DNA of 64,000 nt. Source: Pseudomonas phage phi9_PA9. The position numbers and the translations under genes were made by a program. Each line of letters begins with the position of its first letter. Positions within the stretch are counted from its first letter, which is position 1. Under the pieces are notes generated by a model that worked only from the letters and a program-made list of their open reading frames with translations, searched no databases and was not told where the DNA came from. Below are positions 12,990 to 17,211 of this stretch, one piece after another. The stretch lies in sequence record PQ093904.1; one strand, written 5' to 3'.

Positions 12990-14870
12990 ATGGCTGTTAA
13001 CGAAAACGAAATCGGCACCGTTCAAACTCAAGCTACCACTCCTGCTCCGCAACCCACTGCACAGCGTCAAGCTCAACGTCCTGCTGGCGCGCCTGGGTCA
13101 ACTACTGGCATTAACCATCTAATGCGTCGCTCTGGGCGGCTAGATGGATCTGATGCTCGTTCAGCAGATGCCCTACAAGTATTCACTAAAGTAAAAGAAG
13201 AAGCAATCCGCCATCAGGACCTACCTGATGACTTCGATATCCATCGTTTCGATCGCGATGCGCAACAAGTTGGTATGGCTGGTCTACTCATTGTTAAACT
13301 AGCTAAAGATATCAACGGTTCCATGAAGGCATTCGTTCGTACTCTAGTACTCGATAACCTACCTGGTACTCGCATCCGTCCCCGTACCCACAAAATCAAC
13401 AATGGTCTAACTGATGACATCATTGAAGAGAAGGTACTACCGCGTGATGTATTCACTGCTCAGTACTGGAGCAAGATCGGCGAGTTCCTACGGAACCGTT
13501 ACAATATCCCTGGTCTAGAAGTACTATCCGCTGGTCCCCGTGCAGTGTATGCTGACTTCGACTTCAAAGATGAACTAGCTGTTAAGAACCTACTAGTTGA
13601 ATCTGTTAATATCTGTGAAGATGCTATTGCCCGTCGTAACAATGAGACTCCGTTCTCTATTGCAACCCACATCAAAGCAGAAAACGAACAGCTTACCTGC
13701 AACCTAGACTACAATGGTATTCCGGTTAAAGATAGCTGTGGTAATCCGATTCGTTCTGACCTGGTTATTTCCACTAGCCGTGGTAAGAAAACCAACGTAC
13801 CTGAGAACGAGTTCTATGATACCGATAGCCAGCTAAACCAAGTTAGTCTATTCGTAGATCTACATTGGACTCCGACCACTGGCCAGCAACAAGGTATGTT
13901 TGGCGTAACTCTACCTGGTGCAGTTCTACCTCCGCAGTTCACTCCTTACATCGTTATCACTGACGTTCGTAAGGCATCCTGGATCCAAGCATGGACTCTA
14001 GAAATGTGGCTGTTCGCACTTGGTAATGCGTATCGTGCAACTGCATCTCAGGCATGGGCTCGTACCCTAATGCCGAAGATTGCTACTAGCAAGATGCGTG
14101 ATATTGGTGCGCTTGGTTATTACTCAGAGCTAGGCAAAGCGATTGAAACTCGCACCGAAGCATTCATGGCAGACGATAGCAACTTCGTAATGCTAATGAA
14201 CAAGATGGTTAACCAAAACCCTGCATTCCAGATCGATATCGATCCGATGGGTGACAACTCTGCTCTTGAGCAGGTAGTCCTAGATGCAGCTGGTGGCGTA
14301 AACCAAGCTCGTGCAGTTAGCCTGATCTTCCAAGCTCTAACTAACCTATATGGCACTGATTTCCGTCAGTTCTATAACCTAGCTGAAGCTGGTCCGATTA
14401 TCTTTGACAACCATCATGAAGTAGACCTCGGTCACTACACTGATGAGCATGGTGAACTAAGCGACCGTCGTGATCTTGACGTTCTAGGCGCCATGAACAT
14501 GTCTGAAGGTAATGATCAAGAGTGGAAGACCTGGTATGCTACTCAAGTAGGTAATGACCATATTGTGCGTCGTATGAATAACAGTAAAGGCTTCGACAAG
14601 ATGTACCTAGGTAACGTTACCTATACTGGTCGTGCTCGTCGTCTAACCTTTAACCCGAAATTCATCACCGCAATGGATGCCGCAGCAGCAGCAGCTGGTG
14701 TAACTGTAACCATGGAAAACCTAATTACCAACTTCGGTCAACAGCGCTTCGCTGGTTACACCGGTATGGGTAACATGGCTGTTTCTGGTAGTGCACAAGT
14801 TGGTATGGCTGGCAGCATGGGTCAAACTTACGGCGCTCCTTCCTATAATGCACCGGGTACCTGGTACTAA
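12990..14870 (+). CDS. Putative chimallin-like nuclear-shell protein (alternative: major capsid protein); highly expressed gene
   Basis: 626 aa with a disordered Q/P/A-rich N-terminal tail; codon usage is conspicuously GC3/optimal-codon biased compared with neighbours; it lies immediately upstream of the nvRNAP beta' N-terminal gene, as chimallin does in phiKZ (gp54/gp55, recalled from the literature, not verified here). Confidence 0.45.
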
Positions 14871-15199
14871 TAGGAAATACCTCGGTAGATAGGGATGTTA
14901 AATAAGTAACATCCCGATTCTAATACTGCGACCCTGGTTCACTTCGGTGATAACGGTTAGGAGTAGGTTCTGTGAAGTAATCGACTAGTGAACTTAGTCT
15001 AGGTCGACCTATCACTACACGAGGATGATGGATCACTTAACCGAAAGGAGTTACTCAAAAGGTGACGTGTGATCAAAACTACAATGGATGGTAAAAGGTC
15101 CTAGTGCCAGAGCGCTACAGAGAAGAGCGGAGGTTAAGCTTTGTAGACGACGCTAGGATCGGGCCAGGCTCCGTTGGTGGTCCATTGTAAAAACTGATA
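14871..15199 (+). ncRNA. Candidate structured RNA / structured 3'UTR
   Basis: ~330-nt non-coding stretch with higher GC content than its surroundings and several perfect hairpins (GGGATGTT-AAATAAGT-AACATCCC; CAC-TTCG-GTG; GGTCGACC palindrome), ending at a canonical terminator. Confidence 0.3.
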
Positions 15200-15238
15200 T
15201 AGCGGCTCCTTCGGGGGCCGCTTATATCTCCTTTTTTT
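15200..15238 (+). terminator. Rho-independent terminator (AGCGGCTCC-TTCG-GGGGCCGCT plus T8)
   Basis: GC stem with UUCG loop followed by CTTTTTTT. Confidence 0.75.
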
Positions 15239-15263
15239 GTTAATCGATAAATAGGAGTTTGGT

Positions 15264-17211
15264 ATGGGTCTTTATGCCAAAGTTGTTGATCATGATGAAG
15301 TACATGATCAATTTACGGGTAAACGTATTTATGCCAATGATTACAATACGAGTAACTCAGATGAGAAAGAAGAATTTGATAGGCATTTCTATTCTCATTT
15401 CCAAGATTCAGAAGCAATTGAAAGTAGCGTAAGTTGTGATTGTCGAGCAATCGAAGACGCACATAAACTCGGAGTAATCTGTGATATTTGTAATACTCCA
15501 GTTGTCAATACTTCTAGCCGCCCTATCGAACCATCAATGTGGGTTCGTACACCAAAACATGTACGTAGTCTAATTAACCCACGTTTAATCATTATGCTAA
15601 CTGGATATCTAGTAACTAAAGAATTCGATTTCTTAGCATATCTAACCGATACTTCTTATCGATACGATGTAGAATCCATTGCCTCTAAAGAAACACGCAG
15701 GAAAGTAGATAGACTACTGCATCGAGGATTTGAAAGAGGATTAAATCACTTCATTGATAACTTCAATGAGATCTTCCAATTCCTACTAGATGCAAATATT
15801 ATCTCTAATAATAAATCCGAATTCGCTCAATTCATTGCTCAGAATAAAGATAAGCTATTCCCTAAATATTTACCAGTTCCTTCTAAACTCTGTTTCGTAG
15901 CAGAATCAACTACATCTGGTACTTACTTAGATAAACCAATTGAAGCAGCAATTGACGCTACCTTAACCTTCGCTAGTATTGATGCATCGTCTGTACCACT
16001 TAGCCCTATTAAAGCTCAGAATAGGACTATGCGAGGACTAAGACTATATGGCCAGTTCTACGAGATCTACGCAAAATCACGAATTGCTCAAAAGCCTGGT
16101 CTTGCTCGGCGTCACATGTTTGGTGCTCGTCTCAACGCTACGGCGCGTGCAGTAATCACTTCTATTAGTGACCCGCATGATTATGATGAATTACATATCC
16201 CTTGGGGAGTAGGTTGTCAATTATTAAAGTATCATCTAACTAACAAGTTAAAAGCTAAGTTTAACATGACAACTCGTGAAGCATTCTCATTTGTATATGA
16301 GAATGTACTTCAATATAACCAAATCATCGCTGATCTATTTAAAGAGTTAATTGCAGAGGCTGCACCATATAAAGGAATGGGTTGCACTTTTCACCGAAAC
16401 CCGACCCTTCAACGTGGATCTACTCAACAATTCTTTATTACTAAAGTAAAAGATGACATTAATGATAATTCAATCAGCATGTCAGTATTATGCCTTAAAG
16501 CGCCTAATCGGACAAGTAACTAACCAAATAAGGTAAAAACAATGGAACAAAACGGAGTAGTGTCCGTCTTTGATCCGGCTTCATTTAAAATTGAATATGA
16601 AGTGCTTGATAAATACCTTATTAAGTTAATCAAGTCTAGTTCCCCCAGTGAGTAATCATTGGGATGAGTTCTCTCTAATTGCTGGGATATCCTGTTAAAC
16701 TAATCTACCACTGCGAGTCGAAAGACAAAGCCAAGGTTTGAAAAAGATTAGGTAGGGCCAATCAGCAGCCAAGCTCCGTAACATTCCATTTAGGAATAGG
16801 AGAAGGTTCAACGACTATTACGGTATCAGGTGCACCGGTCCTAGAAATAGGATGTAGGGTCAAGTGACTCGAAATGGGAGACACCCCACTCCGAAAGGAA
16901 GGGTGAAGATATAGTCTGGTCTGCATGGTAACATGCAGCAGGTGGTAATTATACTACCGGGTATGGATTAACGACCCATACTGAACATAACGGCGGATTT
17001 TGACGGCGATCAATTGAATCTTACATTAATGCCTGATGTGTATTTAACTAAAGCAACTGAACGCATTGCTCCACATACATGGGTTCTATCTATTGATGAA
17101 CCACATGAAATCTCAGGTAACCTTGAATTACAGGGTCCTGTTGTAGAAACAATTATTAACTGGGCACATGAGAAGTATTTACCACCATTAGAAGAGTGGT
17201 TGAAGTCGTAA
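15264..17211 (+). CDS. Non-virion RNA polymerase beta' subunit, N-terminal fragment, interrupted by a group I intron (exons 15264-16508 and 16993-17211)
   Basis: N-terminal Zn finger C-x-C...CDIC; HRNPTLQRGSTQQF matches beta' NRQPTLHRLGIQAF; exon 1 ends ...LKAPN and exon 2 begins ADFDGDQLNLTLMPD, restoring the catalytic NADFDGD motif. Confidence 0.8.
16509..16992 (+). other. Group I self-splicing intron (no homing endonuclease ORF) within the beta' NADFDGD motif
   Basis: Contains P7-like strands ...CGACTAT... and AAGATATAGTCTGG (the G-binding-site signature AAGATATAGTC, as in the Tetrahymena intron); 5' exon ends in U (AAT), intron ends in G (..CTGAACATAACG); splicing restores the reading frame. 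Confidence 0.75.

Follow-up and report, generated by a model that had tools for sequence, protein, structure and literature searches.

Chimallin and an intron-split RNA polymerase gene in a phiKZ-species jumbo phage, with two candidate cis-elements bracketing the chimallin gene

Which protein is encoded by a gene whose codon usage sets it apart from its neighbors and which stands directly ahead of an RNA polymerase gene, and how might its expression be controlled? The question is raised by a stretch of 64,000 nucleotides (nt) from Pseudomonas phage phi9_PA9 (sequence record PQ093904.1), the whole of which is called the window here. An earlier note, made from the letters of the window alone, had pointed to an open reading frame (ORF) of 626 amino acids (aa) at 12990..14870, which is indeed present on the plus strand (as are the promoter, palindrome, RNA domains, terminator, exons and intron described below), and had read it as a gene for chimallin. 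We are highly confident that this is the chmA-gp55 locus of a jumbo phage of the phiKZ species, with the expression scheme proposed below and with gp55 split by an intron. No evidence contradicting the gene identities was met, and the weak points of this reading all sit in its inferred steps.

The 626-aa protein is chimallin (ChmA), the shell protein of the phage nucleus and the orthologue of PHIKZ054, on which matches to Pfam, PHROG and PDB agree. It aligns along its whole length with the Pfam family PF25677 (Chimallin_Phikzvirus), scoring 1117.2 bits where the cut-off is 27 (residues 1-626 of the 627-position profile), and matches PHROG 4795, 'nuclear shell protein'. Two solved homologues of phiKZ chimallin aligned over nearly its whole length, phiPA3 PhuN (PDB 8FNE; E = 4.6e-164, residues 32-606) and 201phi2-1 gp105 (PDB 7SQQ; E = 2.3e-135, residues 14-625 against chain residues 25-633), and Goslar chimallin (PDB 7SQT) matched with E = 1.4e-17. 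Full-length identity to the solved chimallins is about 42-49%, which settles the fold of ChmA. The protein is identical to the ChmA of the phages Bobae and Churi at 626 of 626 residues and to PHIKZ054 at 620 of 626 (99.0%), the six changes from phiKZ being T17A, A32T, L258M, V312A, L426I and V430I (window residue, position, phiKZ residue). The only argument for the alternative kept in the earlier note, a major capsid protein with an HK97 fold, is the general one that a codon-optimized, abundant phage protein could be a capsid protein. The full-length homology to Chimallin_Phikzvirus and to the solved chimallin and PhuN structures (E down to 1e-164) excludes this candidate, no capsid family in Pfam or PHROGs was matched by the protein, and the major capsid protein of phiKZ is PHIKZ120 (PMC8244752), which lies outside the window; the probability left to a capsid protein is negligible.

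Gene order agrees with this identification. The gene has the same length as phiKZ gp54 and lies in the same place, between PHIKZ053 and PHIKZ055, and the gene downstream is the one for the N-terminal part of beta' (beta'-N) of the non-virion RNA polymerase (nvRNAP), as had been proposed (PHROG 2987; PDB chain 7OGP_A). The succession of chmA and beta'-N is kept in every Pseudomonas chimallivirus compared, and the gene numbers given in the earlier note proved right (PHIKZ054, nuclear shell protein; PHIKZ055, RNA polymerase subunit).

In the solved chimallins, the N-terminal segment NTS (48-61) and the C-terminal segments CTS1 (590-611) and CTS2 (622-631) bind neighboring protomers (PMC9365700). 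All three fall within the range of the 7SQQ alignment (a test at the level of sequence). Q, A, P and T abound in the first 36 residues of ChmA, which lie outside the PhuN alignment (which begins at residue 32) and mostly outside the alignment with 201phi2-1 chimallin (which begins at residue 14); this stretch of about 36 residues matches the dispensable 'N-tail' of Laughlin 2022 (PMC9365700). In phiKZ, gp54 self-assembles into a shell around the replicating phage DNA (PMC10612078, PMC12676376), and transposon sequencing (Tn-seq) found chmA and orf55 to be essential and orf56 dispensable; a transcription start site (TSS) lies directly upstream of chmA (PMC12676376). The ChmA of the window would likewise be an abundant and essential protein that builds the lattice of the phage nucleus by self-assembly, with its N- and C-terminal segments as the contacts.

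Does the locus belong to a new phage, as had been suggested? A megablast of 12700-17400 against GenBank phages matched 58 records, in 42 of which a single match spans at least 80% of the query and in 43 of which the best match has 95-99% DNA identity (about 97-98% for many of the genomes); the best record was vB_PaeM_kmuB (98.0%), phiKZ itself gave 96.7%, and every full-length match was a phiKZ-like phage of Pseudomonas aeruginosa. The genes of the window follow the phiKZ order from PHIKZ040 through at least PHIKZ082 (the last gene mapped). These matches together with the gene order place the window in the type species Phikzvirus phiKZ as a strain of this P. aeruginosa jumbo phage, and not in a new lineage. 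A previously unseen lineage of chimalliviruses would find some room in the fact that no record is at least 99% identical over the whole 4.7-kb query (matches at that level are short, e.g., a 34-nt part of the core of the intron described below) and in a combination of intron and endonuclease states unlike that of phiKZ, Bobae or kmuB. It is nevertheless very improbable, given more than 40 deposited genomes at 95-99% DNA identity and 100% coverage, the gene order of phiKZ gp40-gp8x and a ChmA shared with Bobae and Churi, which leave variation at the level of strains within Phikzvirus phiKZ; the claim of a new chimallivirus-type phage thus did not hold. The claim that the window carries polymerase genes and a helicase in phiKZ order did, since gp68, gp71/73, gp74, the gp75 helicase and gp80 are all there. 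The context expected of Chimalliviridae (two split multisubunit RNA polymerases and PhuZ) was also found, with gp55, gp68, gp71/73 and gp74 belonging to the nvRNAP and gp80 to the virion RNA polymerase (vRNAP), and with the window start falling in or beside PHIKZ039, the PhuZ gene (judged from the phiKZ map). The identification of chimallin and beta'-N is therefore correct, yet it concerns biology already known from phiKZ gp54/gp55.

What the locus may add lies on either side of chmA. We propose, tentatively and at somewhat less than even confidence, that two cis-elements bracket the chmA unit, namely an invariant 10-nt sequence CTTGATCAAG upstream and, in the 3' untranslated region (3'UTR), a two-domain covarying RNA of about 350 nt that is limited to three genera infecting P. 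aeruginosa.

The larger of the two elements fills most of the spacer between chmA and gp55 (393 nt, 14871-15263), which the earlier note had rightly described as structured. The spacer folds with -134.7 kcal/mol (z = -4.4; none of 100 shuffled sequences was as stable) and ends in a strong intrinsic terminator. The consensus structure comprises 101 pairs in 16 helices. The 5' domain (14881..15023; helices 1-7, from RNAalifold and pair counts on alignment A3) is closed by a long-range helix, and compensatory changes in this domain extend to the closing helix itself (CUCG/CGAG against CCCG/CGGG); it is replaced in phiHQ and carries an insertion of about 120 nt in phiPA3. The 3' domain (15030..15190; helices 8-15) is the best conserved, and its covariance model R1 gave 186 bits for the window, 185 for phiHQ, 174 for phiKZ and 64 for phiPA3, with nothing credible in six other genera. 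The terminator (15196..15240, read from the sequence; helix 16) consists of a GC stem of 13 pairs with a UUCG loop, followed by a U-tract; it is 100% paired, and its stem core GGCGGCTCCTTCGGG and U-tract are invariant even in phiPA3 (single differences occur at three stem positions).

The conservation of this block is unlike that of its surroundings. Over 360 nt, its identity to the copies in PA1C, PS119XW, HPP-Temi and other members of the Pawinskivirus group is 86-87%, and at 87% DNA identity it is better conserved than either of the essential genes flanking it: ChmA and gp55 of this group are 48% and about 69% identical to those of the window as proteins, and the flanking DNA is 67-74% identical. 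A far more diverged, alignable copy is present in phiPA3, and phiHQ keeps the 3' half alone. Base pairing was retained in 95.9% of the cells of the alignment, and 19 pairs changed on both sides against 6.3 +/- 1.7 in shuffled alignments (none of 500 reached 19) and 0-2 in controls with slid partners; these counts come from three independent lineages and from a structure derived from the same sequences on which it was tested. Judged by this covariation, the chmA 3'UTR is a structured RNA without an Rfam family. A sensitive covariance search against Rfam 15 gave best E values of 1.2-8 (the terminator or noise), and no tRNA or tmRNA was found in the block. A small ORF was rejected as an explanation, as the 47 substitutions between the window and PA1C are distributed without a 3-nt period (19/15/13) and shared ORFs do not exceed 22 aa.

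The block is limited to Phikzvirus, Pawinskivirus and Miltoncavirus, all of which infect P. aeruginosa, and is absent from phages of P. syringae and P. fluorescens, from 201phi2-1 (whose record gives no host) and from three chimallin contigs of IMG/VR. Searches with nhmmer and covariance models in Psa21, 201phi2-1, D6, Phabio, Viktualia, Noxifer and those three contigs returned weak terminator-like matches alone, a motif scan of IMG/VR found phiPA3 only, and a scan of bacterial genomes found no bacterial counterpart. The 15 motif-scan matches in metagenome contigs and the 11 in bacterial genomes were dismissed as chance, since none scores by nhmmer or covariance model and none is from Pseudomonas. 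The spacer as such is variable, with 84-87 nt in Noxifer and D6, structured RNA in the P. aeruginosa phages and unrelated annotated ORFs in other genera (201phi2-1, L013 4484-5050, the 189-aa gp106; Phabio, L015 4537-4809; Viktualia, L016 4389-4850; Psa21, L012 4341-4583).

A patchy distribution that follows the host, a 5' half replaced in phiHQ and a spacer occupied by unrelated ORFs in 201phi2-1, Phabio and Viktualia are what would also be expected if the block were a young passenger and not a functional RNA, i.e., a segment recently recombined between jumbo phages co-infecting P. aeruginosa or a decaying mobile element. We consider this unlikely, though it deserves to be kept in mind, because the substitutions between lineages are mostly compensatory, far beyond the controls, and because the much more diverged copy of phiPA3 retains the helices, which argues for long-term constraint over youth; moreover, the block is present in one copy per genome, without terminal repeats and without any sign of coding. 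With a functional RNA as the preferred reading, the message of chmA would end in a conserved structured 3'UTR of about 350 nt followed by a strong terminator. Only 24 nt part the terminator from the ATG of gp55, so that gp55 would be reached by read-through only, and the most economical role of the 3' block may be to stabilize the chmA message and to set a high ratio of ChmA to gp55 within one operon. The arrangement resembles, by position only, the stabilizing or attenuating 3'UTR terminator structures of operons and the 3'UTR-derived small RNAs of bacteria, in which a structured RNA with an intrinsic terminator likewise stands between a highly and a lowly expressed gene of one operon; the chmA block differs in its much greater size (about 350 nt, with two domains and 16 helices), in having no Rfam family and in being confined to chimalliviruses of P. 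aeruginosa.

Upstream of chmA, a promoter-like copy had been noticed ahead of the gene, and this observation could be substantiated. The block AAAAATTTGAGATTTATATTACTAA (12896..12920) is of the early type, read by the vRNAP, and contains the octamer TATATTAC (12910-12917) as part of a motif with 24 specified bases, AAAAATTTGAGATnTATATTACTAA. This motif has two exact copies in the window, one ahead of chmA and one ahead of gp68, against 0 expected, and a looser form has 8 against 2.0 expected. On its own, the octamer shows no enrichment (9 copies in the window against 7.4 expected), and it is informative only as part of the extended motif. The promoter block is kept upstream of chmA in Psa21, 201phi2-1, Phabio and PA1C. 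Its second exact copy (24395-24419) lies 34 nt upstream of gp68, the gene of the fifth nvRNAP subunit, an early gene, which suggests a common promoter subtype for chmA and gp68. A generic scan for sigma-70 promoters and terminators stayed at chance level and did not pick up the real terminator. The early promoters of phiKZ are AT-rich, centered near -10 and read by the virion polymerase (PMC7598289, PMC8244752), and PHIKZ054 has a primary TSS with the early motif and a secondary TSS of the middle type, being a member of a six-gene operon (Wicke et al., PMC8244752). The block of the window fits this AT-rich early type, with the TSS position deduced from the motif; chmA would thus be transcribed by the vRNAP from an early-type promoter, to which the literature adds the secondary middle-type start.

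The ATG of chmA follows the octamer by 72 nt, which fits the 70-nt leader described earlier, and the leader contains the imperfect hairpin centered on GATC that had been reported with it (GGTTCTTCTTGATCAAGAAACC, 12948-12969), thermodynamically weak and strongly conserved. Its core is the palindrome CTTGATCAAG (12954..12963, with symmetry extending over 12952-12965), 36 nt upstream of the ATG. CTTGATCAAG occurs once in the window and exactly once per chmA locus compared, and in 11 of the 13 diverged chimallivirus loci it precedes the chmA ATG by 36-47 nt (phiKZ, PA1C, phiHQ, phiPA3, Psa21, 201phi2-1, D6, Phabio, Viktualia and two IMG/VR contigs); it is missing from Noxifer and one IMG/VR contig, the two most diverged loci. 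It is thus present in at least seven genera of Pseudomonas chimalliviruses, in which, outside the phiKZ species, ChmA is 41-49% identical to that of the window and the remainder of the leader aligns poorly. The flanks of the core prolong its symmetry with differing bases (TT/AA, TA/TA, TTAA/TTAA, ATTA/TAAT). An IMG/VR scan for the palindrome with AAAGGA was too loose (at least 120 stretches, 2 of them adjoining a chimallin gene), and a search for related loci with a ChmA alignment yielded 2 loci.

The chmA message would be translated from a leader of about 65-70 nt that carries this palindrome, and the conserved site may act there as an RNA hairpin. That CTTGATCAAG acts instead as DNA (as an operator, or as part of a secondary or middle promoter or start site) is a serious competitor that we rate a little below an even chance. 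Sequence-specific recognition typically goes with an invariant core that does not covary, like the 10 nt here; moreover, the hairpin is weak as an RNA, and the secondary TSS of PHIKZ054 has a TACT-type middle motif (PMC8244752), copies of which lie 10-25 nt upstream of the palindrome. Flanks that extend the symmetry with different bases, on the other hand, are compatible with a hairpin as well as with a dimeric DNA site, and the DNA site is a candidate only.

The composition of chmA, which had been described as distinct and codon-biased, is a clear outlier among the 56 ORFs of the window. Its GC content is 47.3% and its GC at third codon positions (GC3) 40.5%, against about 36% and 26% in the other 55 (z about 3.9 each). 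GC at the first and second codon positions is raised too, to which the amino acid composition contributes (more Ala, Gly, Gln and Arg), and the synonymous bias against the other genes is real (summed chi2 316, 41 degrees of freedom, p about 4e-44). The gene favors C-ending two-fold codons and CGT: TTC (Phe) reaches 0.88 against 0.39 in the other genes, AAC (Asn) 0.73 against 0.25, CGT (Arg) 0.78 against 0.41 and CTA (Leu) 0.76 against 0.29. TTA (Leu), CCA (Pro) and ACA (Thr), with 0.36, 0.50 and 0.28 in the other genes, are not used at all, and ATA, AGA, AGG and CGA are absent from chmA as well. The tRNA genes of phiKZ (L035 31722-38441) are those for Leu-UAA, Pro-UGG, Thr-UGU, Asn-GUU (two genes), Asp-GUC and Met-CAU, and the shunned codons TTA, CCA and ACA are the cognates of the first three; a tRNA scan of the window found none. 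We read the codon usage of chmA as selected; it would suit immediate synthesis from the tRNA pool of the host before the phage tRNAs accumulate.

Several points weigh against the expression scheme as a whole. The transcript ends in this strain are deduced from sequence. The leader fold is no more stable than that of shuffled sequence (z = -1.2). D6 and Noxifer lack the 3'UTR block, their chmA-gp55 spacers being 84-87 nt, so the block is not needed for chimallin expression in general. With regard to codon usage, CTA makes up 76% of the leucine codons of chmA and is not known to be a favored codon of the host, so the bias is more than simply host-like, and other early genes of the window, including gp55 and gp68, do not have it.

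The gene downstream of chmA is interrupted, which had escaped the earlier note; the end of the locus given there, 17211, is the end of its second exon. The ORF at 15264..16523 (419 aa) covers positions 1-416 of PHROG 2987 and residues 21-436 of 7OGP_A (E = 4e-285), and the 65-aa ORF at 17014..17211 covers positions 424-477 of the same PHROG, so that both map to one PDB chain, named 'PHIKZ055 ... PHIKZ056.1'. Exon 1 of the nvRNAP beta'-N gene (PHIKZ055; 15264..16508) ends in ...KAPN, encoded by a terminal GCG CCT AAT, and exon 2 (PHIKZ056.1; 16993..17211, residues 443-506 of 7OGP_A), in which the 65-aa ORF lies, starts with ADFDGDQLNLTL, encoded by GCG GAT TTT GAC GGC GAT CAA. Between them lies a group I intron of 484 nt without a homing endonuclease gene (16509..16992), detected by Rfam RF00028 at 16618-16938 (80.4 bits against a gathering score of 50; model positions 1-253). 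The 5' exon ends in U (16508) and the intron in G (16992). Removal of the intron restores the reading frame, and the peptide spliced in silico is identical to residues 426-506 of 7OGP_A at 81 of 81 positions. With the junction at 16508/16993, the intron splits the catalytic NADFDGD, to which exon 1 contributes N and exon 2 ADFDGD, so that the motif is complete only in the spliced product.

We infer that the gp55 intron self-splices, since the phiKZ nvRNAP that was purified and solved contains the fused protein and statements in the literature point the same way. Splicing would join ...KAPN to ADFDGDQ... inside the Mg-binding NADFDGD and yield the protein of the solved phiKZ structure, gp55 then providing the N-terminal half of beta' of the nvRNAP. 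Earlier descriptions exist of the DFDGD motif of gp55 (PMC10612078) and, for phiKZ, of the introns that interrupt gp55 and gp180 as well as of the endonucleases gp56, gp72 and gp179 (PMC11512511). Relative to phiKZ gp55 (PHIKZ055 and PHIKZ056.1, 7OGP_A), the exons and the splice junction are the same and the intron core is about 93% identical where aligned, whereas the phiKZ intron carries the gene of the HNH endonuclease gp56 (PHIKZ056), which the 484-nt intron of the window has lost: about 896 nt of it are deleted, and the first 55 or so and the last 54 or so nt remain (about 16543-16656). The loss agrees with the dispensability of orf56 in Tn-seq (PMC12676376).

The state of this intron varies among strains. 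It is without the endonuclease gene also in the deposited strains Wadjak 1, sp. 30-1, Churi and SL2, and Bobae and kmuB have an additional, second gp55 intron that is absent from the window, so that the states observed are one intron with the endonuclease gene (phiKZ), one without (window) and two without (Bobae, kmuB). The additional group I intron (88.9 bits; L002 5204-5453 in Bobae, at about window position 16399, and L003 in kmuB) lies in exon 1 right after ...CTFHRN, a site that we take to be the conserved 'NRxPTLH'-type motif of beta'. The 3' core of the window intron (16850-16941) has matches in unrelated phages (83% over 92 nt in the Escherichia phages vB_EcoM_F1 and FN, 93% over 44 nt in the Pectobacterium phages phiTE and CB7 and 100% over 34 nt in the Escherichia phage DCP80), which are probably related group I introns. 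Another group I intron of the window (RF00028, 81.1 bits, 30845-31071) splits the beta-like nvRNAP gene PHIKZ071/073; it lies between the ORFs at 29619-30818 and 31147-32049, the gap of which is 328 nt against 1248 nt in phiKZ, so that the endonuclease gene PHIKZ072 is missing there too.

Two further observations concern the surroundings. A 62-aa ORF (17352-17540) lies between exon 2 of gp55 and gp57, in the same place as in Bobae and kmuB. The DNA at 17283-17400, including the start of this ORF, matches phiKZ at the start of PHIKZ058.1, which in phiKZ sits between gp58 and gp59, and this looks like the relocation of a small gene. The 5'UTR of phiKZ gp40 has been reported to yield a non-coding RNA (ncRNA) of 196 nt (Gerovac 2021, as cited in PMC10914365), and the counterpart of this region would be expected, by position, at about 100-311 of the window, upstream of the PHIKZ040 orthologue (312-794).

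With this locus, phiKZ gp54/gp55, the type example for the phage nucleus, has been rediscovered, and the identification from raw sequence proved accurate; what the locus offers beyond the known gene identities is two modest new leads, the palindrome of the leader and the covarying RNA of the 3'UTR. Neither CTTGATCAAG nor the 3'UTR block was found in the accessible phage literature, and the list of 17 '5'UTR-derived ncRNA candidates' of Putzeys 2024, which lay outside that literature, may include the block. If both elements are functional, they would point to a dedicated control, at the level of RNA, of the amount and timing of the nuclear-shell protein, or alternatively to an RNA with a host-specific function within the most abundant early message of the phage. 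Chimallin is needed very early and in bulk, beside scarce RNA polymerase subunits of the same operon, and the two elements offer mutable targets for this question now that phiKZ can be engineered with Cas13a. The intron and endonuclease states of gp55, which vary from strain to strain, enlarge the set of natural examples for the known competition that jumbo phages in the same cell wage by means of introns and their endonucleases.

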